The position numbers were made by a program, and so were the translations under genes. The notes beneath the pieces were generated by a model. The model was not told the DNA's origin. It searched no databases and saw only the letters and a program-made list of their open reading frames with translations. DNA of 39,252 nt from Escherichia phage EcoDS1. This document shows positions 2,336 to 39,252 of this stretch, in pieces (position 1 is the stretch's first letter; every line of letters begins with the position of its first letter). The stretch lies in sequence record NC_011042.1. The stretch is one strand, 5' to 3'.

Positions 2336-5017
2336 ATGAGCGTCATCTCTATTGACAAACACGACTTCTCTGATGTGTCGAACGCCATTGAGCCGTTTAA
2401 CCTGCTGGCTGACCACTACGGGCAAGATCTTGCAGTCAAACAGCTTCAGCTTGAGCATGAGGCATACACTGAAGGCGAGCGACGTTTCATCAAGAACCTT
2501 GAGCGCCAGACTGAGCGCGGGGAACTGGCAGACAATCAGGTCGCCAAGCCTCTTATGCAGACTCTGGTACCTAAGATTGCGCAAGCCGTCAGGGAGTGGC
2601 ATGAAGGTCCAGACGGGAAGCTGTCAACCTCTCGTCCTAGCGTAGCGTTCACCATGTTGAGCACTGAAGAGAAGGCCGTCAAGGATCGCTCTCTTCGTAT
2701 CTCTTGCGAGTCTGCTTCGGTCATCATACTGAAGGTCATACTCTCCAAGCTGGTCAAGCCTGAAGGGATACCGATTACACCGATGGCCTCCGCGATAGGT
2801 CGCACACTTGAGGATGAAATCCGCTTCGGGCGCATTCGTGACAAGGAGAAAGAGCACTTCAAGAAGGCGATAGCTGATAACCTGAACAAGCGAGCTGGGG
2901 CATCCTACAAGAAAGCCTACATGCAAGCGGTTGAGACATCCATGCTGGAGCAGGGTCAACTGGAAGATGCGTGGGGAACTTGGAGTCCTACAGAGGCTGT
3001 CCACGTTGGCATCAAGATGCTTGAGATTGTCATCCAGTCAACACAACTGGTCGAGCTTAAGCGGTACGGTGCTGGCAATGCAGCGGCTGACGTAGAGATG
3101 GTCCACCTGTCAGACTTCTGGGTCAAGAAGATGGCACAACGAGGATTCAGCCTAGCGGGTATCGCTCCAGTCTACCAGCCTTGCGTCGTTCCACCTAAGC
3201 CGTGGACTGGTGTAGTAGGCGGTGGGTACTGGGCCAAGGGTCGCAGACCACTACCACTGATTCGCTTAGGGTCTAAGTCTGCGGTGGCACGTTACGAAGA
3301 CGTGTACATGCCTGAAGTCTATGACGCTGTGAATATCATCCAGAATACACCTTGGAAAGTTAACAAGAAGGTGCTGGAAGTGGTGAACATGGTCGAGAAG
3401 CTGAACAACACGCCTATTGATGACATCCCTCAGATGGAACCGCTGAAGCCTGAAGACTATGCAGGTGAGACTGAAGAGGAACTCAAGGCATGGAAGAAGG
3501 CTGCTGCTGGTATCTACCGCCGAGAGAAGGCCCGGCAGTCACGTAGATTGTCACTAAGCTTTATCGTCAACCAAGCGAACAAGTTCTCTCAATTCAAGGC
3601 CATATGGTTTCCGTACAATATGGACTGGCGCGGCCGTGTCTACGCTGTTCCGATGTTCAACCCTCAAGGTAATGACATGCAGAAGGGCCTTCTGACTCTG
3701 GCAGTCGGTAAGCCTATTGGTGCCGATGGGTTTAAATGGCTGAAGGTCCACGGTGCAAACTGCGCGGGTATCGATAAAGTAACCTTCGAGGAGCGCATCA
3801 AGTGGGTGGAGGACAACCACGACAACATCATGGCTACTGCTAAGGCACCGATGGATAGCATTGAGTGGTGGGGCAAGTTAGACTCTCCGTTTTGCTTCCT
3901 TGCGTTCTGCTTCGAGTATGCTGGCGTGATGCATCACGGATTGTCTTACTCCTGCTCGCTGCCAATAGCTTTCGATGGGTCCTGCTCTGGGATTCAGCAC
4001 TTCAGCGCGATGCTTCGTGATCACATCGGTGGACATGCAGTAAACCTGACGCCTTCCGGTAAGGTCCAAGACATCTACCGCATCGTGTCTGACCGCATTG
4101 AGGAGGAGCTTAAAGTCCTGCTGGTTAACGGCACGGACAACGAGATGGTAACTCACGAGGACAAGAAAACTGGTGAGATTACCGAACGTCTCAAGCTGGG
4201 GACACGAGAGCTGGCCCGGCAGTGGCTTACTTACGGCATGTCACGTAAGGTCACTAAGCGTTCGGTCATGACTCTGGCCTACGGGTCGAAAGAGTATGGC
4301 TTCGCAGACCAAGTTTACGAGGACATCGTGATGCCAGCGATTGACTCAGGGTCTGGCGCTATGTTCACTGAACCAAGCCAAGCGTCTCGCTTCATGGCTA
4401 AGATGATTTGGGAAGCTGTGAGCGTGACCGTAGTTGCTGCGGTTGACGCGATGAAGTGGCTTCAAGGTGCTGCCAAGCTGCTGGCTGCTGAAGTGAAAGA
4501 CAAGAAGACTGGAGAAATCCTGAAGCCTTGCCTTCCGGTACACTGGGTCACACCTGATGGGTTCCCGGTCTGGCAGGAATACCGCAAGAAGGATACCACT
4601 CGTCTGAACCTGATGTTCTTAGGGTCATTCAACCTTCAACCTACGGTCAACAAAGGCACGAAGAAAGAGTTGGATAAGCACAAGCAGGAGTCGGGCATTA
4701 GCCCGAACTTCGTCCACTCACAAGATGGTAGCCACCTCCGCAAGACTGTAGTCCACACGCACCGCAAGTATGGCGTGATGTCATTCGCAGTGATTCACGA
4801 TAGCTTCGGGACCATCCCGGCTGACGCTGAGTATCTGTTCCGTGGTGTCCGTGAGACGATGGTCGAGACCTACCGCGACAACGATGTGCTGCTTGACTTC
4901 TACGAGCAGTTCGAATACCAGCTTCACGAGAGCCAGCGCGACAAGTTGCCTGAGCTTCCGAAGAAAGGTAAACTGAATATCGAAGACATCTTGTCTTCAG
5001 ACTTTGCATTCGCTTAA
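2336..5017 (+). CDS. T7-type single-subunit DNA-directed RNA polymerase (gp1)
   Basis: 893 aa; long stretches match T7 RNAP (CVVPPKPWTG, AIWFPYNMDWRGRVYAV, DSPFCFLAFCFEYAGV, LPIAFDGSCSGIQHFSAMLRD, HDSFGT, C-terminal FAFA). Confidence 0.98.
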   Translation: MSVISIDKHDFSDVSNAIEPFNLLADHYGQDLAVKQLQLEHEAYTEGERRFIKNLERQTERGELADNQVAKPLMQTLVPKIAQAVREWHEGPDGKLSTSRPSVAFTMLSTEEKAVKDRSLRISCESASVIILKVILSKLVKPEGIPITPMASAIGRTLEDEIRFGRIRDKEKEHFKKAIADNLNKRAGASYKKAYMQAVETSMLEQGQLEDAWGTWSPTEAVHVGIKMLEIVIQSTQLVELKRYGAGNAAADVEMVHLSDFWVKKMAQRGFSLAGIAPVYQPCVVPPKPWTGVVGGGYWAKGRRPLPLIRLGSKSAVARYEDVYMPEVYDAVNIIQNTPWKVNKKVLEVVNMVEKLNNTPIDDIPQMEPLKPEDYAGETEEELKAWKKAAAGIYRREKARQSRRLSLSFIVNQANKFSQFKAIWFPYNMDWRGRVYAVPMFNPQGNDMQKGLLTLAVGKPIGADGFKWLKVHGANCAGIDKVTFEERIKWVEDNHDNIMATAKAPMDSIEWWGKLDSPFCFLAFCFEYAGVMHHGLSYSCSLPIAFDGSCSGIQHFSAMLRDHIGGHAVNLTPSGKVQDIYRIVSDRIEEELKVLLVNGTDNEMVTHEDKKTGEITERLKLGTRELARQWLTYGMSRKVTKRSVMTLAYGSKEYGFADQVYEDIVMPAIDSGSGAMFTEPSQASRFMAKMIWEAVSVTVVAAVDAMKWLQGAAKLLAAEVKDKKTGEILKPCLPVHWVTPDGFPVWQEYRKKDTTRLNLMFLGSFNLQPTVNKGTKKELDKHKQESGISPNFVHSQDGSHLRKTVVHTHRKYGVMSFAVIHDSFGTIPADAEYLFRGVRETMVETYRDNDVLLDFYEQFEYQLHESQRDKLPELPKKGKLNIEDILSSDFAFA

Positions 5018-6038: not shown

Positions 6039-6056
6039 ACTATCACTATAGGATTA
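6034..6056 (+). promoter_or_regulatory. Phage-RNAP promoter (phi1.1-like)
   Basis: CTAAACTATCACTATAGGATTAG; +1 G at 6051. Confidence 0.8.
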
Positions 6057-6061
6057 GACTC

Positions 6062-6088
6062 AAGGTCATGACTCAGAGTCGTGGCCTT
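6062..6088 (+). other. RNase III-type processing hairpin (R1.1-like)
   Basis: AAGGUCAUGAC/GUCGUGGCCUU stem of 11 bp including G-U pairs, 5-nt loop; paralogous to the hairpins at 13055 and 35950. Confidence 0.5.
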
Positions 6089-6126
6089 CATGATTAACCC
6101 TAATAAACTACTGGAGATTTAACCGT

Positions 6127-12879: not shown

Positions 12880-13044
12880 TTGCTAAGAAAACTTAAAGCT
12901 CGATACCATCGGTTCATGTACAAATGGTGGAGCGATGAAGCAACCTGCCTGTCGAACATTCTGGGAGACCAGCGGTTCAACTCTAAGGCATGGAAGAAAG
13001 CTAACCGTAAGTTTATGTACCACTTCTTGCGTACAGACTTATAG
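12880..13044 (+). CDS. Small basic protein (gene 4.x position)
   Basis: Open frame from 12841 (GTG); AAGGAGG at 12867..12873 favours the in-frame TTG at 12880, with an ATG at 12916 as alternative; Lys/Arg-rich. Confidence 0.4.
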   Translation: MLRKLKARYHRFMYKWWSDEATCLSNILGDQRFNSKAWKKANRKFMYHFLRTDL

Positions 13045-13054
13045 GTCTAAACTC

Positions 13055-13079
13055 AAGGTCATTCACATAGAGTGGCCTT
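13055..13079 (+). other. RNase III-type processing hairpin (R4.7-like)
   Basis: AAGGUCAUUC/GAGUGGCCUU stem, 5-nt loop; paralogue of 6062 and 35950. Confidence 0.5.
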
Positions 13080-13107
13080 TATGATTAGACTAAACGGAGG
13101 ATTAACC

Positions 13108-18248: not shown

Positions 18249-19817
18249 ATGGCTGAACGTGAAGGGTTCGCTGCTGAAGGAGCCAAAGCGGTCTATGACC
18301 GACTGAAGAACGGTAGACAGCCATATGAGACACGCGCTCAGAATTGTGCTGCTGTCACTATCCCGTCACTGTTTCCTAAGGAGTCCGACAACTCGTCTAC
18401 TGAGTACACCACTCCGTGGCAGTCTGTAGGTGCTCGCTGCTTGAACAACTTGGCTGCAAAGCTGATGTTGGCGTTATTCCCTCAGTCACCGTGGATGCGA
18501 CTGACAGTCTCCGAATATGAGGCAAAGACCTTGAGTCAGGACTCAGAGGCTGCTGCTCGTGTTGACGAAGGGCTGGCTATGGTCGAGCGCGTGTTGATGG
18601 CCTACATGGAGACTAACAGTTTCCGTGTCCCATTGTTTGAGGCTCTTAAGCAGCTTATAGTCTCAGGTAACTGTCTGCTCTACATTCCAGAGCCTGAACA
18701 GGGAACCTACAGTCCCATGCGAATGTACCGCTTAGTGTCCTACGTTGTCCAACGTGATGCGTTCGGTAACATCTTGCAGATTGTGACTCTAGACAAGGTA
18801 GCGTTTAGTGCTCTACCGGAAGACGTGAAGTCTCAACTCAACACAGACGACTATGAGCCTGACACCGAGCTTGAAGTGTATACGCACATCTACCGTCAGG
18901 ACGACGAGTATCTGCGCTACGAGGAAGTGGAAGGCATTGAGGTGACAGGGACCGATGGTTCCTACCCGCTGACTGCATGTCCATACATCCCGGTACGAAT
19001 GGTTCGACTGGATGGTGAAGACTACGGTCGTTCTTACTGCGAGGAGTATCTGGGAGACCTCAACTCGCTGGAGACGATTACAGAAGCTATCACCAAAATG
19101 GCTAAGGTAGCCTCCAAGGTGGTTGGCCTCGTTAACCCGAACGGTATCACGCAACCTCGACGTCTGAACAAGGCGGCTACAGGCGAGTTCGTGGCTGGTC
19201 GCGTTGAGGACATCAACTTCCTGCAACTGACGAAAGGTCAGGACTTTACGATTGCTAAGTCGGTTGCTGACGCTATCGAGCAACGTTTAGGCTGGGCCTT
19301 CCTTCTTAATAGTGCTGTTCAGCGTAATGCCGAGCGTGTCACTGCTGAAGAGATTCGTTATGTTGCTGGCGAACTGGAGGCGACCTTAGGTGGCGTGTAC
19401 TCAGTTCAGTCACAAGAGCTTCAGTTACCTATAGTCCGTGTGCTGATGAACCAACTTCAGTCTGCGGGCATGATTCCTGACCTTCCGAAAGAAGCGGTAG
19501 AGCCTACTGTCTCCACAGGTCTGGAAGCTCTGGGCCGTGGTCAGGACTTAGAGAAGCTAACTCAGGCAGTAAACATGATGACCGGGCTACAGCCTCTGCA
19601 ACAGGACCCAGACATTAACTTGCCGACCCTGAAGCTGCGACTGCTGAATGCCTTAGGTATTGACACTGCTGGCTTGCTGCTGACCCAGGACGAGAAGTTG
19701 CAACGTATGGCTGAACAATCCGCTCAAGGAGCTGTGGTCAACGGTGCGTCTGCTGCTGGTGCTAACATGGGCGCTGCTGTAGGTCAGGGAGCTGGTGAGG
19801 ATATGGCTCAAGCCTAA
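18249..19817 (+). CDS. Head-tail connector / portal protein (gp8)
   Basis: 522 aa; size, position and long conserved blocks consistent with T7 gp8. Confidence 0.95.
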   Translation: MAEREGFAAEGAKAVYDRLKNGRQPYETRAQNCAAVTIPSLFPKESDNSSTEYTTPWQSVGARCLNNLAAKLMLALFPQSPWMRLTVSEYEAKTLSQDSEAAARVDEGLAMVERVLMAYMETNSFRVPLFEALKQLIVSGNCLLYIPEPEQGTYSPMRMYRLVSYVVQRDAFGNILQIVTLDKVAFSALPEDVKSQLNTDDYEPDTELEVYTHIYRQDDEYLRYEEVEGIEVTGTDGSYPLTACPYIPVRMVRLDGEDYGRSYCEEYLGDLNSLETITEAITKMAKVASKVVGLVNPNGITQPRRLNKAATGEFVAGRVEDINFLQLTKGQDFTIAKSVADAIEQRLGWAFLLNSAVQRNAERVTAEEIRYVAGELEATLGGVYSVQSQELQLPIVRVLMNQLQSAGMIPDLPKEAVEPTVSTGLEALGRGQDLEKLTQAVNMMTGLQPLQQDPDINLPTLKLRLLNALGIDTAGLLLTQDEKLQRMAEQSAQGAVVNGASAAGANMGAAVGQGAGEDMAQA

Positions 19818-19835
19818 ACTATCACTATAGGAACA
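19813..19835 (+). promoter_or_regulatory. Phage-RNAP promoter (phi9-like)
   Basis: CCTAAACTATCACTATAGGAACA; the gp8 TAA stop is embedded in the promoter. Confidence 0.8.
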
Positions 19836-19932: not shown

Positions 19933-20817
19933 ATGTCTCAATCAGTTTATGCCGAGTTTGGCGTTAGCTCTACTGCAATCACGGGTTCCGTTGAGGACCT
20001 GAACGAACACCAAAAGTCTATGCTTGAACAGGACGTAGCTGTTCGTGATGGCGACGACGCTATTACCTTCAAGCAACTGGAAGCCGAAAACGAAGAGGCG
20101 ACCGAAGAAGACGAGAACGTCGAAGAGACTGAAGGTGAAGAAGACCACGAGTCCGATGACGAAGAGTCTGAGACCGATGGTGAACAACCTGAGTTCGTCG
20201 AGCTGGGTGATGCACCTAAAGAGCTGACAGAAAGTGTAACCGCGCTGGATGAAAACGAAGCTGCATTCGACGACATGGTGTCTTCTGCTGTGGAAGCTGG
20301 CAAGGTCACTGCTGATGAAATTACCGCTATCAAGGCTGAATACGCCAAGGACGGTAAGCTGTCTGACGCATCCTACGCTAAGTTGCAGGAAGCAGGTTAC
20401 ACCAAGCGTTTCGTAGATTCGTTTGTCCGTGGTCAGGAAGCTCTGGCTGAACAGTATGCTGCTGGTGTGGTTCGCTACGCTGGTGGAGCTGAACAGTTTA
20501 ATCGCATCCTGTCCCACCTTGAGTCAACCGACCCGTCAACTCGTGAAGCACTGGAAGCTGCTATCGTTCGTAAGGACATTGCGACTACCAAAGCTCTGCT
20601 GAATCTTGCTGGAAAGACACTTGGTAAAGCTGTAGGCGTTAAACCGCAGCGTACCATCACCACTCAGGCTAAACCTGTGGTAGCACCTAAGGCTCCTAAG
20701 ACCGAAGCATTCAGCTCTAAGGCTGACATGATTAAGGCTATGAGTGACCCGCGATACCTGCGTGATGCTAAGTACACGATGGAAGTTCGCGCTAAGGTAG
20801 CTGCATCAAGCCTGTAG
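19933..20817 (+). CDS. Capsid assembly (scaffolding) protein (gp9)
   Basis: 294 aa, strongly acidic with Glu/Asp runs; position between portal and capsid genes. Confidence 0.9.
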   Translation: MSQSVYAEFGVSSTAITGSVEDLNEHQKSMLEQDVAVRDGDDAITFKQLEAENEEATEEDENVEETEGEEDHESDDEESETDGEQPEFVELGDAPKELTESVTALDENEAAFDDMVSSAVEAGKVTADEITAIKAEYAKDGKLSDASYAKLQEAGYTKRFVDSFVRGQEALAEQYAAGVVRYAGGAEQFNRILSHLESTDPSTREALEAAIVRKDIATTKALLNLAGKTLGKAVGVKPQRTITTQAKPVVAPKAPKTEAFSSKADMIKAMSDPRYLRDAKYTMEVRAKVAASSL

Positions 20818-20818
20818 G

Positions 20819-20841
20819 ACTAAACTATCACTATAGGGAGA
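20819..20841 (+). promoter_or_regulatory. Phage-RNAP promoter (phi10-like), best consensus match
   Basis: CTAAACTATCACTATAGGGAGAC; initiating GGGAGA and a leader with GGTTTCCCT as in the T7 phi10 leader; AGGAGA RBS before the capsid ATG. Confidence 0.85.
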
Positions 20842-21987: not shown

Positions 21988-22118
21988 GTACCTTTAGCCA
22001 ACCTAACGTCGCTACAGTAGCGGCTGCACCTGAAGAGGAGACTCTAACTCCTCAACAGAAAGCTGCGCGTACTCGTGCTGCGAACAGGGCCGCTAAACTG
22101 GCTGAGTCCAATAACTAA
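20944..22118 (+). CDS. Minor capsid protein gp10B by -1 ribosomal frameshift (predicted)
   Basis: G_GTT_TTC at 21966..21972, five codons before the 10A stop; the -1 frame stays open for about 49 codons to TAA at 22116..22118. T7 makes 10B the same way. Confidence 0.55.
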
Positions 22119-22123
22119 TTGAA

Positions 22124-22161
22124 ACCCCTTGGGTGCCTTCGGGTGCTTGAGGGGTTTTTTG
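22124..22161 (+). terminator. Intrinsic terminator after the capsid gene (Tphi-like)
   Basis: CCCCTTGGGTGCC-TTCG-GGTGCTTGAGGGG hairpin with a UUCG loop followed by TTTTTT; resembles T7 Tphi. Confidence 0.8.
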
Positions 22162-22181
22162 CTTAAAGTGAGAGGAGACTT

Positions 22182-22748
22182 ATGGCTCAATACATTCCAC
22201 TGAATGCTAACGATGACTTAGACGCCATCAACGATATGTTAGCAGCTATCGGTGAACCAGCAGTCCTACAGCTTGACGAGGGGAACGCTGACGTCTCGAA
22301 CGCTCAACGTATCCTACATCGTGTCAATCGTCAGGTCCAAGCTAAAGGCTGGAACTTTAACATCAACGAAGCTGCTGTCCTGACACCTGATATCCAAGAC
22401 AATAGGATTCGATTCTTGCCATCATACCTTCGTGTAATGACTGCTGGGGCCACCAGCTACTACAGCAACATGGGTGGATACCTGTACGACCTGTCCACTC
22501 AGTCAACCACTTTCACCGACCCTATCACGGTAGAGCTTGTGGAGATGAAGCCATTCTCCGAGATGCCTGTGGTCTTCAGGGACTACATCGTCACTAAAGC
22601 TAGCCGTGAGTTCAACGCTAAGTTCTTCGGTAGCCCAGAGTCTGAACTGTACCTTCGTGAGCAGGAAGCAGAACTCTATCAGCAGGTCATGGAATACGAG
22701 ATGGATACTGGTCGCTACAACATGATGTCCGACATCGGGAGGGACTAA
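22182..22748 (+). CDS. Tail tubular protein A (gp11)
   Basis: 188 aa; IGEP, GWNFNI, YIVTKASREFN, FFGSPE, MEYEMD match T7 gp11. Confidence 0.92.
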   Translation: MAQYIPLNANDDLDAINDMLAAIGEPAVLQLDEGNADVSNAQRILHRVNRQVQAKGWNFNINEAAVLTPDIQDNRIRFLPSYLRVMTAGATSYYSNMGGYLYDLSTQSTTFTDPITVELVEMKPFSEMPVVFRDYIVTKASREFNAKFFGSPESELYLREQEAELYQQVMEYEMDTGRYNMMSDIGRD

Positions 22749-22975
22749 TGGCTAGTCACAACCTGAAGATTCACCGCCAGCACTTTGGTCCTGTACAACT
22801 AGGTCTAAAGACAGCAGAGCTGAGACTTAACGACCGGGACTTTAAGGTTGGCGACTGGCTTATCCTGAACGAGTGGGACAACGGATATACTGGACAACAG
22901 GTAGCACGTAAGGTTGTCCACATTGCTGACGTTGGTGACATCGCTGAGGGATACGTCCTAATGAGTATGATTTAA
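22748..22975 (+). CDS. DUF3850 / ASCH-like small protein (75 aa)
   Basis: H.LKIH..HFGPV..GLKTAELRLNDRDFKVGDWLILNEWD..YTGQQV fits the DUF3850 pattern as I recall it (ASCH/PUA-like fold); TAATG coupling to gp11; T7 has no gene here. Confidence 0.65.
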   Translation: MASHNLKIHRQHFGPVQLGLKTAELRLNDRDFKVGDWLILNEWDNGYTGQQVARKVVHIADVGDIAEGYVLMSMI

Positions 22976-22984
22976 GGAGGTCCT

Positions 22985-25342
22985 ATGCCACTAATTACTC
23001 AATCAATCAAGAACCTTAAAGGCGGTATTAGCCAGCAGCCAGACATACTGAGGTTCTCAGACCAAGGCGAGGAGCAAGTTAACTGCTGGTCATCGGAGAG
23101 TGATGGCCTCCAGAAGCGTCCACCTACAGTCTTCAAGCGACGTCTTAACATCGACGTTGGGAGCAACCCTAAGTTCCACCTGATTAACCGTGATGAGCAG
23201 GAGCAGTATTACATCGTGTTCAACGGGTCAAACATTCAGGTAGTTGACTTGAGTGGTAATCAATACTCAGTTTCCGGTGAGGTAGACTACGTTAAGTCGT
23301 CCAACCCGCGAGATGACATCCGTGTTGTTACCGTTGCAGATTATACGTTCATCGTGAACCGTAAGGTTGTCGTTAAAGGGGGAAGCGAGAAGTCACACTC
23401 TGGTTACAATCGTAAAGCTCGTGCTTTAATTAACCTGCGTGGTGGACAGTATGGTCGCACCCTTAAGGTAGGAATCAATGGAGGCGTTAAGGTTTCGCAT
23501 AAGTTGCCAGCAGGTAATGATGCCGAGAATGACCCTCCTAAGGTTGATGCTCAGGCTATCGGTGCAGCTCTGAGAGACCTTCTTGTTGCTGCTTACCCTA
23601 CCTTCACGTTCGACCTTGGGTCTGGCTTCCTGTTAATCACTGCCCCTTCAGGGACTGACATTAACTCAGTGGAGACGGAGGATGGCTACGCTAACCAGCT
23701 AATCAGCCCAGTACTCGACACAGTGCAAACAATCTCTAAGTTGCCTCTTGCAGCTCCAAATGGGTACATCATTAAGATTCAAGGTGAGACCAACAGTAGC
23801 GCCGATGAATATTACGTGATGTATGACTCCAACACTAAGACGTGGAAGGAGACAGTAGAGCCGGGAGTGGTCACTGGGTTCGATAACACCACAATGCCAC
23901 ATGCTCTGGTGAGACAATCTGACGGCTCCTTTGAGTTCAAGACTCTGGACTGGTCTAAGCGTGGTTCTGGTAATGATGACACAAACCCTATGCCTAGCTT
24001 CGTGGATGCCACGATTAACGATGTGTTCTTCTACAGGAACAGGCTAGGGTTCTTGTCAGGCGAGAACGTAATCATGAGCCGTTCAGCAAGCTACTTTGCG
24101 TTCTTCCCTAAGAGTGCGGCTACATTGAGTGATGACGATCCTATTGACGTAGCCGTAAGTCACCCTAGAATCTCAATCCTTAAGTATGCCGTTCCGTTTA
24201 GCGAGCAGCTACTACTTTGGTCAGATGAGGTGCAGTTCGTTATGACAAGCTCTGGGGTCCTCACTGCGAAGTCTATCCAGCTTGATGTAGGCTCAGAGTT
24301 TTCCTTAGGCGATAATGCCAGACCGTTCGCTGTAGGACGCTCAGTCTTCTTCTCAGCGCCTCGTGGGTCATTCACCAGCATTAAGCGATACTTCGCTGTA
24401 GCAGATGTGTCTGACGTGAAGGATGCCGATGATACCACTGGCCACGTACTGTCCTATATCCCTAACGGGGTGTTTGACATTCAAGGTACAGGGACTGAGA
24501 ACTACATCTGCGTCAACTCTACAGGTGCATACAACCGAATCTACATCTACAAGTTCTTGTTTAAGGATGGCGTACAGCTTCAAGCCTCTTGGTCGCACTG
24601 GGAGTTCCCTAAAGCTGATAAGATTCTGGCGTCTGCGTCGATTGGCTCTACCATGTTCATTGTTCGTCAGCACCAAGGCGGCGTGGACCTTGAGCACCTT
24701 AAGTTCATCAAGGAGGCAACTGACTTTCCGTTAGAGCCATATAGACTCCACGTTGACTCCAAGGTGTCTATGGTAATACCAATTGGCTCATACAACGCTG
24801 ACACCTATAAGACTACGGTTGACATTGGTTCTGCTTATGGAGGAAACGCTCCGTCTCCCGGTCGGTACTATCTGATCGACAGTCAGGGTGCCTACGTGGA
24901 CCTTGGGGAATTTACCGACATCTCAACTGTGGCTATACTCAATGGCGATTGGTCAGGACGTACAGTGTTCATCGGACGGTCTTATCTGATGTCCTACAAG
25001 TTCTCACGGTTCCTGATTAAGATTGAAGACGAGAGTGGCACTCAGTCTGAAGACACTGGACGCCTACAACTTCGCCGGGCTTGGGTCAACTACAAGGACA
25101 CTGGCGCTCTTAGACTCATTGTCAGAAACGGTGAGCGGGAGTTCGTGAACACCTTTAATGGGTACACCCTTGGTCAGCAAACCATCGGGACTACCAACAT
25201 TGGGGATGGTCAGTATCGCTTCGCTATGAATGGTAACGCATTAACCACGAGCCTAACCTTAGAGTCAGACTATCCTACCCCAGTGTCCATCGTTGGGTGT
25301 GGCTGGGAGGCGTCATACGCTAAGAAAGCTCGTTCCGTCTAA
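22985..25342 (+). CDS. Tail tubular protein B (gp12)
   Basis: 785 aa; SQSIKNLKGGISQQPDILR, VADYTFIVNR, DPIDVAVSHPRISILKYAVPFSEQLLLWSDE, RLQLRRAWVNYKDTG, IVGCGWE match T7 gp12. Confidence 0.96.
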   Translation: MPLITQSIKNLKGGISQQPDILRFSDQGEEQVNCWSSESDGLQKRPPTVFKRRLNIDVGSNPKFHLINRDEQEQYYIVFNGSNIQVVDLSGNQYSVSGEVDYVKSSNPRDDIRVVTVADYTFIVNRKVVVKGGSEKSHSGYNRKARALINLRGGQYGRTLKVGINGGVKVSHKLPAGNDAENDPPKVDAQAIGAALRDLLVAAYPTFTFDLGSGFLLITAPSGTDINSVETEDGYANQLISPVLDTVQTISKLPLAAPNGYIIKIQGETNSSADEYYVMYDSNTKTWKETVEPGVVTGFDNTTMPHALVRQSDGSFEFKTLDWSKRGSGNDDTNPMPSFVDATINDVFFYRNRLGFLSGENVIMSRSASYFAFFPKSAATLSDDDPIDVAVSHPRISILKYAVPFSEQLLLWSDEVQFVMTSSGVLTAKSIQLDVGSEFSLGDNARPFAVGRSVFFSAPRGSFTSIKRYFAVADVSDVKDADDTTGHVLSYIPNGVFDIQGTGTENYICVNSTGAYNRIYIYKFLFKDGVQLQASWSHWEFPKADKILASASIGSTMFIVRQHQGGVDLEHLKFIKEATDFPLEPYRLHVDSKVSMVIPIGSYNADTYKTTVDIGSAYGGNAPSPGRYYLIDSQGAYVDLGEFTDISTVAILNGDWSGRTVFIGRSYLMSYKFSRFLIKIEDESGTQSEDTGRLQLRRAWVNYKDTGALRLIVRNGEREFVNTFNGYTLGQQTIGTTNIGDGQYRFAMNGNALTTSLTLESDYPTPVSIVGCGWEASYAKKARSV

Positions 25343-25349
25343 CTTATTG

Positions 25350-25399
25350 AAGGGCCTATAGATTTACCTTAACTATCACTATAGGGACTATAGGCCCTT
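25350..25399. repeat. 12-bp perfect inverted repeat enclosing the phi13-like promoter
   Basis: AAGGGCCTATAG (25350..25361) and CTATAGGCCCTT (25388..25399) are exact reverse complements. Confidence 0.6.
25367..25389 (+). promoter_or_regulatory. Phage-RNAP promoter (phi13-like)
   Basis: CCTTAACTATCACTATAGGGACT; +1 G at 25384. Confidence 0.8.
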
Positions 25400-25418
25400 A
25401 AGGTTATAAGGAGACTTT

Positions 25419-25874
25419 ATGTATATTCGCAAGGCTACAGATGTAGACGTTTGGTACGCTGCTGCACAACTTACAGATGACGACTTAGAGGAGTGTAAAG
25501 CCAACTACGGGACCACTGAAGGTCTCACTGAAAGGCTGCAAGCACACCTAACGTCTTCATCTGTGGTTTTGACTAACGCTACTGGGGATATTTACGCCTA
25601 TGGCGGCAACCAAGGTGACAACGTTTGGTTCCTGACAACCAGAATTACCGAGCGTCTCCCACCTAAAGGTAAGCGAGAGTTCCGTGAGAGAATCATGGAG
25701 TATCGTGACCAGATGCTGGAGGACTATCCGGTACTATGGAACTACGTCTGGGAAGGCAATGCGTCCCACATCCGGTTTCTCAAGTCAATAGGCGCTAAGT
25801 TCCACGACGATAAGTGGACCAGAAGTCCAGTGACTGGAGAAGTATTCATTCTATTCACAATCACCAAGGAGTAA
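25419..25874 (+). CDS. Internal virion protein A (gp13)
   Basis: 151 aa; positional; N-terminal MYI as in T7 gp13. Confidence 0.7.
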   Translation: MYIRKATDVDVWYAAAQLTDDDLEECKANYGTTEGLTERLQAHLTSSSVVLTNATGDIYAYGGNQGDNVWFLTTRITERLPPKGKREFRERIMEYRDQMLEDYPVLWNYVWEGNASHIRFLKSIGAKFHDDKWTRSPVTGEVFILFTITKE

Positions 25875-25876
25875 AG

Positions 25877-26278
25877 ATGACCAAGGTTTGTTTAACTTGT
25901 GGTCTGGAGAAACCAATCACTGAGTTTCACAAACAGGCCACCAAGAAAGACCCGAACAGGCGCAAGCCTCATTGCAGAAGCTGTTGGTCCAAGATACGGA
26001 AGGATAGAACCCCAGAGCACAACAGGAGGTATAACCTGAAGAAAGGATACGGAATAACACCTGAGGAGTATGATAAAATGCTTCGTGAGCAAGGTGGGAC
26101 ATGTGCTATTTGTCATGGTACAGAGTCTGTAGGAAGACTAGCGGTAGACCATTGCCATTCAACTGGAAAGGTTAGAGGGCTGCTATGTACCAACTGCAAT
26201 CAAGCTATAGGCAAGCTGAAGGATGACGTCCAGTTGCTTAGAAACGCTATCAACTATCTGGAGGTGAACCATGTGTGA
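25877..26278 (+). CDS. Endonuclease VII-type HNH nuclease (133 aa)
   Basis: CAICHG..(x)..AVDHCHSTGKVRGLLCTNCNQAIG is the endonuclease VII / HNH zinc-finger motif; a second CxxC pair lies at the N-terminus; absent from T7 at this position; the ORF-track start at 25814 is an upstream in-frame extension. Confidence 0.8.
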   Translation: MTKVCLTCGLEKPITEFHKQATKKDPNRRKPHCRSCWSKIRKDRTPEHNRRYNLKKGYGITPEEYDKMLREQGGTCAICHGTESVGRLAVDHCHSTGKVRGLLCTNCNQAIGKLKDDVQLLRNAINYLEVNHV

Positions 26279-26858
26279 ACCAGTATCCATCGGTTTAGGA
26301 ATCATGGCTGTAGCAGGGGCCACTATGTCAGCATCCCAACAGGCCAAAGCTGAGGGTGCTGCTATCGATGCTCAGAACCGGCAGGCTCAGGAGATGGTTA
26401 AGCAGATGAACTACTCTGACGCCAACCTGAAGATGCAGGAGCGAGACCTGAAGGAGCAGCAGATGGCCGAACTGACAGAGACCACGTTAAACGGTATCCG
26501 CAATCAGGGTATGGTCCGAGCTGCGGTAGCTGAGTCCGGTCTGGAAGGTAACTCTATGGACAGGATTGAACGTCAGGTCAAAGGAGATACAGTCAAGGAG
26601 AGAGCAGGGATTACCGAAAGTTACAACCGCGACTATGCGGCTATCTTCGGGAACCGTATCGCCAACATTGAGAACACCAAGTCTGCTATCCGTGGTCAAG
26701 GTAAAATCATCAAGACCAGCCCACTGGCTCATGCACTTAATGTTACTAACGCCGGGATGCAAGGGTACGCTGCTGGTAAGTCAATCTCTGGGGCATCAAG
26801 CTCTGATGGGGCTGCACCAATTAGTGCGGCTAAAGGCACACCTACAGGTCATAGCTAA
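26271..26858 (+). CDS. Internal virion protein B (gp14)
   Basis: 195 aa; MC N-terminus, ESGLEGNSMDRI, NRDYAAIF, AAKGT.TG match T7 gp14. Confidence 0.9.
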   Translation: MCEPVSIGLGIMAVAGATMSASQQAKAEGAAIDAQNRQAQEMVKQMNYSDANLKMQERDLKEQQMAELTETTLNGIRNQGMVRAAVAESGLEGNSMDRIERQVKGDTVKERAGITESYNRDYAAIFGNRIANIENTKSAIRGQGKIIKTSPLAHALNVTNAGMQGYAAGKSISGASSSDGAAPISAAKGTPTGHS

Positions 26859-26869
26859 GAGGAGGACTA

Positions 26870-29152
26870 ATGGCTAGTAATATTGAATCAGCTCTTGCTA
26901 ATCGGACTATGGGTCGGGGCAGAGCGCCGGGTAAAACTATCGCTGTCAACTATCAAGCAGCCAACGTACAAGCTCCTACTGGTGACTCCGGTCTGGCTCG
27001 TGCGTTAACCAACTTCGTTGAGTCTGGGACTGGATTGTACAAGCAGTTCAAAGACGAGGAGAAGACCAGAGCTGACGAGCGGTCTAACGAGATTATCCGT
27101 AAGCTGACACCTCAGCAGAGACGTGAGGCTATCCAGAACGGCACACTGCTGTATCAGGACGACCCTTACGCTATGGAAGCACTTCGAGTCAAGACGGGCC
27201 GTAACGCTGCCTTTGCGGTGGATGACGAGATTAACGTTAAGATTCAGAACGGTGAGTTCCGTACACGTCAGGACATGGAAGAGTATCGCCACCAGCGACT
27301 TCAGGACGCCGCTAAGTCCTATGCTGAAGAGGCGGGTATTAATCCTACAGACGAGTTCTTCCAGCGCGGGTTCAACGATAACATCACAGACCGCAACATC
27401 GCTATCTATGGGTCTTTCAATAAGTATTTCAGCAAGCAGTCTGAAGAGACAGCAATGTTGAACACTCGTATTGAGATGAACTCATTCCTGAACGATGGCG
27501 ACCTGATGCGTTCACCCGAGTCTGGCAAGACCTTCATGGCCTACCTTCGTGATGGACTGACTACTGCTGCTATCCCTTCGGACCAGCGAGCACGGGAGGT
27601 CATTACCCAGACGGTCCGTGACGCAATCCAGAAGTCCGGCGGCTCAAACTTCCTACAGCAAGTACGAGGCGAGCGAATCACCCTTAACGGTGTGGATGCT
27701 ACAGTCGAAGAGATTGTAGGACCTGATGTCTTCAACGCTGCTATTGTTGAGGCACAAGGAACTGAGTACAAGCTGGTGGCTAAGTATCAAGAGGAATTAG
27801 CGTTAGGCGTTCAGTCTGCTATTCTTCAGGACGACCCAACCATCGGTCTTGCCCAGATTCAGAAACTCAAGGAGCAGAACAACCTGCTTCAGCCGGGTGA
27901 AGAACTCACTCCTCAGCGTCAGATGCTTATTAATGCCGAAGCGAGCTTACTGGAAGCGGTCAAGCGTAAGTCTGCTGAACAGGCGAAGGAGAACACTAAG
28001 TTAATTCAGACTCAGAACAAGCAACTGGTCATTGACCAAGTGTATCAGCGACGTCTGGCTGGGGACAACGTGTCCACCAACTATGAGGACCTTCCAGTCT
28101 CAGATGCTACAGGCGAGTTCAAGCGTTCTGACATGAACAACTATGCATCTACCAAGCTACAGCAGATTGACCAGATGGACATCCCTGAGGCTGCTAAAGA
28201 CGCTCAGAAGGTGGCATTGTTAAGAGCTGACACTAACAACGGTCCGTTCCGTAATGCCTTCCAGACTCTAACTCAGGACGCTGCTGGCGAGTGGCAAGCT
28301 GCGGTCATCCGTGGACAGTACGACCCAGACAAGATGCAACGCTTCGAGTCTCTTCGTCGTGCCTACACTCAGGACCCTTCAAGTTTTGCTGCTCTGTATC
28401 CTGACCAAGCTCAGTTGTTCTCTACGTTCGACCAGATGGACAAGATGGGTCTGGACCCTCAGACGATGATTGAAGCTGATAAGCAAGCTGCAAGTCAAAG
28501 CCGTGAGATGCGCATGGAGTCAGACAAGGCGTGGCAGGAGTTGAAGAACGACTCCAAGAACACCCAGTTGTCTCGCCTCCCAACGTCTCTGGACTCAAGT
28601 GCTCGTAAGGTCTGGGACTCATGGTACTATCGTACAGGTAACGCTGACGCTGCAACGCAGCAGACTCAACGCTGGCTGAATGATAACACCGTAACGTTCC
28701 AGTCTGAAGGTTCTGACGGTAAGTCAATCGGCATGGTGTCGAAGCACCAGCTTATGGTCGGGGATAACCCAGAGTCGTGGCATGTGGGTCGAGACATTAT
28801 AGACACAGCTCGTCAGCAGCTCATTAAGGCCAACCCTTGGGTAGTGAACTCTCAGTTGTCCGTTGTTGAACAGAACGGCTCTATCTTCCTCCAAGACGCT
28901 ACGGGGACTATTCGTATTCGATACGATAAAGAACTTGTAGGTAAACTCTACCGCGAACAACAGCAGAAGGCACAAGATGCCGCATATGCTCAGGCAGAAC
29001 GTGACGCTAACAAGCGATCGCGTATCGTCGGGACTAAAGCTGCTGGTGACAAACGTCGAGCTGACCGAGAGGCCAACATCGAGAAGCGCGGTGGGATGTA
29101 CAATGACGTCTCACTGGAGGGTATCGCAAATGCACTAATCGGTAAGGAGTAA
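26870..29152 (+). CDS. Internal virion protein C (gp15)
   Basis: 760 aa; size and position match T7 gp15 (747 aa). Confidence 0.9.
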   Translation: MASNIESALANRTMGRGRAPGKTIAVNYQAANVQAPTGDSGLARALTNFVESGTGLYKQFKDEEKTRADERSNEIIRKLTPQQRREAIQNGTLLYQDDPYAMEALRVKTGRNAAFAVDDEINVKIQNGEFRTRQDMEEYRHQRLQDAAKSYAEEAGINPTDEFFQRGFNDNITDRNIAIYGSFNKYFSKQSEETAMLNTRIEMNSFLNDGDLMRSPESGKTFMAYLRDGLTTAAIPSDQRAREVITQTVRDAIQKSGGSNFLQQVRGERITLNGVDATVEEIVGPDVFNAAIVEAQGTEYKLVAKYQEELALGVQSAILQDDPTIGLAQIQKLKEQNNLLQPGEELTPQRQMLINAEASLLEAVKRKSAEQAKENTKLIQTQNKQLVIDQVYQRRLAGDNVSTNYEDLPVSDATGEFKRSDMNNYASTKLQQIDQMDIPEAAKDAQKVALLRADTNNGPFRNAFQTLTQDAAGEWQAAVIRGQYDPDKMQRFESLRRAYTQDPSSFAALYPDQAQLFSTFDQMDKMGLDPQTMIEADKQAASQSREMRMESDKAWQELKNDSKNTQLSRLPTSLDSSARKVWDSWYYRTGNADAATQQTQRWLNDNTVTFQSEGSDGKSIGMVSKHQLMVGDNPESWHVGRDIIDTARQQLIKANPWVVNSQLSVVEQNGSIFLQDATGTIRIRYDKELVGKLYREQQQKAQDAAYAQAERDANKRSRIVGTKAAGDKRRADREANIEKRGGMYNDVSLEGIANALIGKE

Positions 29153-35929: not shown

Positions 35930-35949
35930 ATCTCTTAAGTGTTAGACTC

Positions 35950-35976
35950 AAGGTCATTACTGTATGTAGTGGCCTT
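35950..35976 (+). other. RNase III-type processing hairpin (R18.5-like)
   Basis: AAGGUCAUUAC/GUAGUGGCCUU 11-bp stem with G-U pairs, 5-nt loop; third paralogue. Confidence 0.5.
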
Positions 35977-36039
35977 TATGGTTAACACTAACTAGTGGAG
36001 GAGACTCTACGTGAAATCTGATAAACCGGGAGGGCACCC

Positions 36040-39074: not shown

Positions 39075-39252
39075 TCTCACAGTTCAAGAACCTCAAGTCT
39101 CCCCATAGGCCCTCTTTCAGTCCAGACCAAAGGCCCTACCCCAGTCTATCATAAGGTTGGACCGATGGTCAAGACGTTAGGTCGACGATAGGTTGCGGCT
39201 ATGGCTTAGGGAAGGACGATAGGTAGGGACTATGGGTCTTCTTTGAGTCTCT
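39075..39252. repeat. Right direct terminal repeat (DTR), 178 bp
   Basis: Identical to 1..178. Confidence 0.9.

Follow-up and report, generated by a model that had tools for sequence, protein, structure and literature searches.

Between the two tail-tube genes of Escherichia phage EcoDS1, whose 39,252-bp sequence (the window, analyzed here in full) is a complete T7-like Kayfunavirus genome with 178-nt direct terminal repeats, lies a 75-aa open reading frame (ORF) that comparison with related junctions marks as a real gene of the DUF3850 family, and one that is very probably translated. We consider it on balance probable that this gene is a nonessential accessory, that its product is a cytoplasmic protein with a pocket for modified nucleobases, and that it occupies a junction permissive for insertion.

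The junctions show that the gene was installed precisely between gp11 and gp12 in an ancestral phage from which part of the Kayfunavirus clade descends, the last gp11 codons being synonymously recoded to a Shine-Dalgarno sequence and the start codon fused to the gp11 stop (TAATG), so that ribosomes finishing gp11 very probably translate the ORF. Transcribed with the tail genes through read-through of a Tphi-like terminator, it has since codiverged with gp12 and undergone shuffling by recombination, and at least two losses have occurred. A conserved polar pocket (K21, E24, R26, N28-D29-R30, and E42) may bind a flipped-out or free modified nucleobase, and the position of the gene in a late operon would reflect where a tightly packed T7-like genome tolerates insertion, not a structural role.

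Layout, transcription, and translation of the ORF

The ORF (22748-22975, + strand) runs from an ATG start to a TAA stop and encodes a protein of 8.5 kDa with a pI of 6.4. Upstream is gp11, tail tubular protein A (gatekeeper/adaptor; 188 aa; 22182-22748, + strand; PF17212 Tube, E = 5e-46; phrog_446 tail protein), and downstream is gp12, tail tubular protein B (nozzle; 785 aa; 22985-25342, + strand; PF25675 Phage_nozzle, E = 0, 1095 bits). The ORF listing and these flanking matches bear out the placement between two tail-tube genes given in a preliminary description of this DNA, which had also held that genes 11 and 12 are adjacent in T7; there, gene 11 (24229-24819) and gene 12 (24843-27227) are indeed 23 nt apart with nothing between them. 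The coupling to gp11 claimed in the same description can be read directly in the sequence: gp11 ends in GGG AGG GAC TAA, the last A of which is the A of the ORF's ATG (GGG AGG GAC TAATG GCT). A Shine-Dalgarno sequence for the ORF, GGGAGGGA (22737-22744, + strand), lies within the last gp11 codons (Gly-Arg-Asp), with its GGAGG core (22738-22742) 5 nt upstream of the ATG. At the other end, 9 nt separate the ORF's stop from the gp12 start at 22985, and the gp12 Shine-Dalgarno sequence AAGGAGG (22974-22980, + strand) overlaps the stop codon. As delimited by alignment to phage K1F and by gap measurements, the ORF and its 9-nt spacer form a 237-bp insert (22748-22984, + strand) bounded by ATG...ATG.

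The arrangement of the window follows the T7 order of phi10, gene 10, Tphi, gene 11, gene 12, and phi13. The nearest upstream promoters feeding the locus are two copies of the phage RNA polymerase promoter (consensus CTAAACTATCACTATAGGGA), the phi10 equivalent (20815-20839, + strand; a member of the nine-copy direct-repeat family D2/D3 in the T7 phi10 position) and a copy upstream of it (19809-19833). The next copy, the phi13 equivalent (25363-25387, + strand; repeat family D2/D4; T7 phi13 position), closes the read-through transcription unit on its downstream side, and there are no further copies between 20839 and 25363. A terminator scan places a Tphi-like intrinsic terminator in the gap between genes 10 and 11 (22121-22164, + strand; 17-bp stem, UUCG loop, and U-run); its hairpin (22121-22158) folds at -25.2 kcal/mol (z = -4.66), and Tphi of T7 occupies the same position. 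Because the ORF lies downstream of this terminator and upstream of the next promoter, transcription can get to it only by reading through the terminator. By this arrangement of signals, the ORF is a late gene predicted to be coexpressed with the tail-tube genes but not at gene 10 levels, such that of its presumed transcription "late at high level" the timing stands and the level was overstated, the gene sitting behind a Tphi-like terminator as genes 11 and 12 do in T7. No sigma-70-like or terminator-like site occurs within 22748-22984, and the ORF, having no promoter or terminator of its own flanking it, is not a classical phage moron.

Two lines of comparison indicate that the ORF is a real gene. 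First, orthologs in the gp11/gp12 slot are intact ORFs of 72 to 75 codons, with pairwise dN/dS values of 0.10 to 0.14 at dS values running from 0.18 to more than 2 (saturation); in the most divergent of those compared by identity (L024, 45%), N28-D29-R30 are lost and constraint is relaxed (omega of 0.35). Second, we compared the junction across 31 loci from GenBank, IMG/VR, and metagenomes. All 19 DUF3850-positive loci have a gp11 tail of GGGAG(G/A)GAC followed by TAA, and none of the 10 loci with a T7-like spacer of 12 to 14 nt has this recoded tail: gp11 ends in GGTCGAGAC (GGT CGA GAC TAA) in 9 of them and in AGCCGAGAG (AGC CGA GAG) in the most distant, L025. The change of GGT CGA to GGG AGG is synonymous, keeping Gly-Arg-Asp while gaining a Shine-Dalgarno sequence, and the presence of the recoded site in every DUF3850-positive locus makes translation of the ORF very probable.

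Two other interpretations of the ORF were considered and set aside. A gp11-DUF3850 frameshift fusion is unsupported: the 29 codons preceding the ATG contain no stop in the ORF frame, but we reject such a fusion because that stretch shows no slippery heptamer of the form X-XXY-YYZ and because the ORF has its own Shine-Dalgarno sequence and ATG. As for an RNA element in place of a protein, there are no Rfam matches across the whole window, and constraint acts at the amino acid level.

Gain, shuffling, and loss at the gp11/gp12 junction

The junction occurs in three states. In the first, which is T7-like, there is no ORF, gp11 has the unrecoded end described above, and a 12- to 14-nt spacer carries the gp12 Shine-Dalgarno sequence. 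In the second, exemplified by the window, the ORF is present, gp11 has the recoded tail, and the two genes overlap at TAATG. In the third, found in K1F and locus L002, the ORF is absent but the recoded gp11 tail is kept, and gp12 starts at the TAATG. K1F reads ...GGGAGGGACTAATG|CC..., with gp12 starting at that ATG, and its gene 11 (ending at 22939) and gene 12 (starting at 22939) overlap by TAATG; aligned with it, the window has exactly 237 extra bases. Because the third state is nested inside the second in neighbor-joining trees of both gp11 and the gp12 5' region, it is a secondary, exact deletion, and at least 22 distinct GenBank phages besides K1F have this exact-deletion junction with the recoded Shine-Dalgarno sequence retained. 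A different loss is recorded in the Kayfunavirus LI10P1, in which codons 1 to 5 of the ORF are fused to residues 100 to 146 of an endonuclease VII, the product of a CACAAC microhomology deletion in a yong1-like order of gp11, DUF3850, endonuclease, and gp12. Judging from these junctions, the gene has been lost at least twice independently, by the K1F-type 237-bp deletion and by the LI10P1 deletion, and the existence of phages of both kinds without it indicates that it is dispensable.

The insertion itself is old, in that orthologs at 45 to 87% identity lie in this slot too and likewise overlap gp11 by one base, among them those of metagenomic contigs (68 to 75% identity), Pectobacterium phage LET1 (61%), and L024. 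Recombination has also left a mark on the locus. Between the window and locus L030, gp11 is 99% identical (dS of 0.19), whereas DUF3850 and gp12 are 68% and 74% identical (dS of about 2), which indicates that recombination has joined the two parts, with the breakpoint precisely where gp11 meets the ORF. The spacer and ORF-bearing states are interleaved in neighbor-joining trees, a pattern consistent with shuffling of the cassette by recombination. The composition of the ORF (GC, 0.482; GC3, 0.513) is indistinguishable from that of the neighboring genes and gives no compositional signal of a recent foreign origin.

The same gp11/gp12 junction holds homing endonuclease genes in phages yong1 and B1, which argues for its being a permissive insertion site. 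In the window, a further endonuclease VII gene is wedged between gp13 and gp14. The ORF contains no nuclease domain of the HNH, GIY-YIG, LAGLIDADG, or EndoVII type, Pfam and PHROGs giving DUF3850/ASCH only.

The best matches to the window are approximately 93 to 95% identical over 25 kb and identify it as a Kayfunavirus. The 1-kb block of gp11, ORF, and gp12 is found at full length in 156 GenBank phage records. The protein itself is detected by tblastn at ≥80% identity in 153 records, compared with 216 records having a Kayfunavirus-type gp11 at ≥80%, and the gene is therefore present in roughly three-quarters of Kayfunavirus-type records, although K1F, the type phage, is without it. Phages bearing the gene include, besides EcoDS1, PE3-1, LM33_P1, and CLB_P1, and those without it include K1F, ZG49, and YZ1. 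The DUF3850 insertion is a presence/absence polymorphism of the genus Kayfunavirus and is not peculiar to EcoDS1.

Nor is the gene new to public databases. The identical 75-aa protein occurs on 378 public contigs, and labels applied to it include "DUF3850 domain-containing protein n=18 Tax=Kayfunavirus," "RNA-binding protein," and "hypothetical protein"; in the GenBank record of phage JSS1, the features under the match to the DUF3850 gene include "activating signal cointegrator." The gene is already cataloged and annotated in public genomes and is ordinary in kind. In our literature searches, no paper was found on DUF3850 in T7-like phages or on its solved relative (see below), and nothing relevant was found under the names gp11.5 or gene 11.5. 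Outside the clade, the nearest relatives (about 58 to 65% identity) are in enterobacterial siphophages and prophages, and the DUF3850 profile as a whole matches 16,175 clusters at 50% identity, which are mostly phage- and prophage-borne.

Fold, conserved residues, and candidate chemistry

The family assignment, first suggested from the pattern of the sequence, holds far beyond chance in an HMM search, with both Pfam gathering thresholds passed: DUF3850 (PF12961) matches over profile positions 2 to 76 of 77 (E = 1.9e-19; 70.1 bits versus a gathering score of 22.9), and ASCH (PF04266) matches with 26.2 bits versus a threshold of 21.2 (E = 1.4e-5). The protein also matches PHROG 986 ("RNA-binding protein"; E = 2.8e-35), whereas NCBIfam profiles give no match and PADLOC profiles only a single 14-bit match at chance level. 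The sole solved relative by sequence is PDB accession number 3IUW (E = 1e-10 with the single sequence and 5e-23 with the profile), the 83-aa "activating signal cointegrator" NP_814290.1 of Enterococcus faecalis V583, a structural genomics deposit made by the JCSG in 2009. Prediction with AlphaFold2 from 59 diverse homologs gives a model (mean pLDDT of 95.9) with the element order strand, helix, and four strands, beginning with a strand at residues 3 to 9, a helix at 10 to 17, and a strand at 23 to 27. As had been anticipated from the ASCH/PUA-like pattern, the model is a beta-barrel, and it superposes on 3IUW with a TM score of 0.92, the next best matches being ASCH enzymes such as YqfB. By this model, the protein is a stand-alone, minimal ASCH superfamily beta-barrel of the DUF3850 family, with nothing essential to distinguish it from 3IUW and other DUF3850 members.

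Conserved residues were placed by secondary structure and sequence alignment. The ASCH octapeptide GxKxxExR is represented by G19-L-K21-T-A-E24-L-R26, on strand 2 after helix 1. Across the 59 homologs, K21, E24, R26, D29, L40, and E42 are invariant, and H4, K7, G19, N28, R30, G35, D36, Y47, T48, G49, V70, and S73 are nearly so; of these, N28-D29-R30, E42, and S73 are conserved residues specific to DUF3850 beyond the octapeptide. The near-neutral pI does not suggest strong polynucleotide binding.

Two groups of characterized ASCH proteins offer points of comparison. In YqfB, the Escherichia coli ac4C/N4-acylcytosine amidohydrolase (PDB accession numbers 1TE7 and 9KYF to 9KYH), K21 serves as base, T24 as nucleophile (T24A is inactive), R26 as oxyanion hole, and E74 as acid. 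Its K21/T24/R26 align opposite K21/E24/R26 of the phage protein, in a profile alignment that stops at about residue 57. Lys21 and Arg26 are thus common to the two, but the nucleophile Thr24 is Glu24 in the phage protein, which is 28 residues shorter, ends at residue 75, and lacks the segment with His70, Glu74, and Tyr89. The Glu at position 24 and the missing E74 segment indicate that the phage protein is not of the YqfB type. It resembles instead the GKER-type ASCH proteins (TthASCH [PDB accession number 2DP9], human EOLA1, and the ASCH domain of TRIP4), with which it shares the beta-barrel and G-x-K-x-x-E-x-R with its Lys and Glu, a dyad that a February 2026 preprint reports as essential for removal of ac4C from tRNA in TthASCH, EOLA1, and TRIP4 (bioRxiv 10.64898/2026.02.27.708502). 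GKER proteins, however, are 120 to 160 aa long with extra helices, whereas the phage protein is a stripped-down core, and its invariant N28-D29-R30 and E42 are features of DUF3850, not of GKER ASCH proteins. For Tyr14 and Tyr81 of TthASCH, F12 and Y69 are candidate counterparts by spacing only; position 12 is F or Y in nearly all orthologs and F in the consensus of the wider family, and Y69 is nearly invariant.

The match to the GKER subgroup leads to the best guess that the phage protein, as a minimal ASCH barrel, hydrolyzes or at least binds an N4-acylated or otherwise modified base. The likeliest single chemistry, which we put forward tentatively and by analogy, would be Lys/Glu-dyad hydrolysis of the N4-acyl group from cytosine (ac4C in tRNA or RNA or as the free nucleoside). 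All 19 ASCH proteins assayed in vitro were active, in a set with no DUF3850 or phage member (bioRxiv 10.64898/2026.02.27.708502), and the chemistry given here is therefore an extrapolation. Being shorter than YqfB, without His70, Glu74, and Tyr89, and with invariants of its own, the phage protein may have a different substrate. What benefit a lytic phage would derive from ac4C removal is not obvious.

Domain fusions were uninformative about function: clustering of the 79 extensions of more than 70 aa present among 260 homologs placed 57 of the 68 at the C terminus in one family that matches only phrog_60, phrog_343, phrog_12449, and phrog_5117, PHROGs of unknown function, and no Pfam domain.

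Alternative roles and comparison with other insertions

The main rival to the favored account, distinctly less probable but to be taken seriously, is that the barrel is a noncatalytic reader or sponge, binding a modified base or mononucleotide (m6-dAMP, 5mC or 4mC nucleotides, or ac4C) without hydrolyzing it. The ligand could come from degradation of host nucleic acid or be a modified site in DNA or RNA, and binding would hide it from host sensors or restriction enzymes as a form of counter-defense. Encouragement for such a role comes from readers of the PUA clan, from the ASCH partners of GNAT-EVE and type I restriction-modification loci, and from PUA-Cal-HAD defense, which senses m6-dAMP. 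Yet the Lys/Glu/Arg triad, which is strictly invariant here, is what ASCH hydrolases use for catalysis. A sponge, moreover, would need a high copy number, and the gene sits behind a terminator; its dN/dS of about 0.1 is unlike the arms-race signature common in anti-defense binders, and no link to defense was found in PADLOC or the literature. The structural similarity of the phage protein to PUA clan readers (YTH, EVE/THYN1, SRA, and McrB-N), which use aromatic cages where it has a Lys/Glu/Arg/Asp-rich motif, is much weaker than that to ASCH proteins.

A counter-defense role could also take the form of an eraser or decoy, with a minimal ASCH hydrolase or binder removing or sequestering a modified nucleotide that host immunity installs or reads, which we think rather unlikely. 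The nucleotide might be a toxin product, such as tRNA or bases N-acetylated by GNAT-EVE or PIN-GNAT toxins, or a danger signal, such as the modified dNMPs that PUA-Cal-HAD detects when a phage breaks down the chromosome. GNAT-EVE and PIN-GNAT toxin operons almost always include an ASCH partner. If an eraser or decoy were at work, the patchy presence of the gene among near-identical Kayfunavirus genomes would reflect hosts with the matching defense.

The surroundings of the gene invite an association with the virion, in which the protein would bind the tail as a decoration or chaperone, or be packaged and ejected for early action in the next infection. We regard this as improbable. In seven unrelated phage contexts examined, homologs sit in early, replication, or accessory modules and never among structural genes: adjoining P2 gpA with a DNA methyltransferase nearby (in two genera), beside helicase/primase genes in two Drexlerviridae-type phages, in the early region of a T1-like phage not far from a polynucleotide kinase gene, close to SSB/resolvase in a Listeria phage, and within the nin region of a lambdoid contig. 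Some phages with gp11 and gp12 about 97% identical lack the gene, namely K1F and at least 22 others, and T7 likewise does without it; the gene is not present in all relatives building the same tail, as would be expected of a virion or tail protein. These nonstructural contexts and the viability of phages with near-identical tails that lack the gene argue against a structural role and for a permissive site. The literature searches turned up neither proteomic nor transcriptomic data for a DUF3850-positive Kayfunavirus; published virion mass spectrometry concerns excised bands in the case of B1 and, for SH3 and SH4, phages without the gene. We infer that the DUF3850 protein is a cytoplasmic accessory protein and not part of the virion. 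The preliminary description had called the presence of the gene inside a structural operon unexplained; the location is as described, but there is little mystery in it, given that the junction hosts endonucleases and that homologs reside in early and replication modules.

Least likely of all is that the gene is a near-neutral passenger, persisting mainly by linkage to a gp12 allele or a homing endonuclease cassette and having its main effect on gp11/gp12 translational coupling and not through its product: recurrent loss without obvious penalty, the selfish endonuclease genes at the same junction, and the breakpoint exactly at the gp11/DUF3850 boundary between the window and L030 would fit, but strong purifying selection over saturating synonymous divergence (omega of about 0.1), the invariant catalytic-type residues, and the maintenance of the family in more than 16,000 largely phage-borne clusters speak against it, as does the strong Shine-Dalgarno sequence of gp12, by which gp12 initiation is independent of the ORF.

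Under the favored account of an accessory gene at a permissive junction, the locus reveals no new kind of element. What is added here is the three-state history of the junction, the recoded ribosome-binding site, the evidence of dispensability, and an assignment of the protein among ASCH subtypes residue by residue. The junction also illustrates neatly how a T7-type operon with little spare room can take in a gene, by means of a recoded ribosome-binding site and a stop/start overlap. Natural near-isogenic phages with and without the gene, an exact 237-bp indel apart, provide a clean handle on DUF3850, and such plus/minus pairs make the function of this very large family directly testable. K1F is a genetically tractable therapy-model phage.

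The closest parallels in genome organization are the accessory and homing endonuclease insertions of T7-like phages, such as the endonuclease VII gene in the gp13-gp14 gap of the window and the HNH genes of the T7 gene 3.8 type. Like the DUF3850 ORF, these are small, dispensable, and placed between conserved late genes, and both kinds of insertion are variably present among close relatives and rely on the transcription of the flanking operon. Unlike them, the DUF3850 ORF carries neither a domain for nuclease activity or mobility nor its own promoter or terminator, and it is set apart further by its translational coupling through a recoded upstream codon pair and by strong purifying selection.

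Recombination and insertion at the gp11/gp12 junction

The gp11/gp12 junction, occupied in the window by the 75-aa DUF3850 gene (22748-22975, + strand), is an insertion site that has been used repeatedly. Some Kayfunavirus genomes carry, between DUF3850 and gp12, an additional endonuclease gene of 146 to 158 aa that overlaps the gp12 start, as in Hafnia phage yong1 (2388-2828 of locus L035) and phage B1 (ORF41; PMC12785254). When window positions 22182-25342 are compared with the related phage loci L030 and L031, the mosaic boundary is sharp: gp11 is 99% identical (dS of 0.19), whereas identity falls to 68% in DUF3850 and 74% in gp12 (dS of about 2), which locates a recombination breakpoint where gp11 meets DUF3850.

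The insertion can also be lost. Kayfunavirus LI10P1 (OZ035801.1; locus L036) retains, at about 450-580, a remnant ORF (MASHN followed by HETGEVRGLLCRHCNKSLGG...) in which DUF3850 codons 1 to 5 run directly into the C-terminal 47 residues of the yong1-type endonuclease. This ORF arose when roughly 520 bp were deleted at a CACAAC microhomology, a single event through which LI10P1 lost both the DUF3850 and endonuclease genes.

Divergent and extended DUF3850 homologs

An ortholog occupying the same slot in L024 (IMGVR_UViG_2700988881, 4567-4791) is only 45% identical to the window DUF3850, with which it has its first four codons (MASH) in common. Among the conserved residues, it retains K21 and R26, carries E24D, and has lost N28-D29-R30; constraint is relaxed (omega of about 0.35 versus about 0.1), and the divergence could reflect either decay or altered specificity.

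Longer homologs (P0147-P0257, 150 to 410 aa) bear C-terminal extensions, 57 of 68 of which fall into a single unannotated family. This family has no Pfam match and matches only phrog_60, phrog_343, phrog_12449, and phrog_5117, all of unknown function. DUF3850 joined to this family is a recurrent two-domain architecture, one that seems not to have been described before.

Genome ends, repeated elements, and other late-operon ORFs

Exact direct terminal repeats of 178 nt (1-178 and 39075-39252) show the linear genome to be complete in the window. Positions 185-300, next to the left repeat on its inner side, contain a degenerate tandem array of a ATAACCATAAGTCA-rich unit of roughly 58 nt. A separate element of roughly 45 to 60 nt (TTAGACTCAAGGTCAT...GTGGCCTTTATGATTA) is present in three copies (6042-6103, 13040-13087, and 35930-35991), the first directly 3' of a phage promoter; these may be RNase III processing sites resembling the T7 R sites.

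In several related phages, the interval separating gp11 from the major capsid gene contains an ORF of 64 to 68 aa that lacks a Pfam match (about 2668-2874 and 3168-3374 in loci L028, L029, and L033; ORF38 in phage B1). In the equivalent window interval (21988-22181), no ORF of at least 40 aa was called on the + strand.

Farther downstream, an endonuclease VII/HNH-type ORF (25814-26278, + strand; PF02945, E = 3e-28; phrog_2633) is sited between gp13 (25419-25874) and gp14 (26271-26858) and overlaps both. This ORF, probably encoding a free-standing homing endonuclease, is likely another insertion in the late operon besides DUF3850; in K1F, the Kayfunavirus type phage, this ORF is missing, and genes 13 and 14 overlap each other directly.
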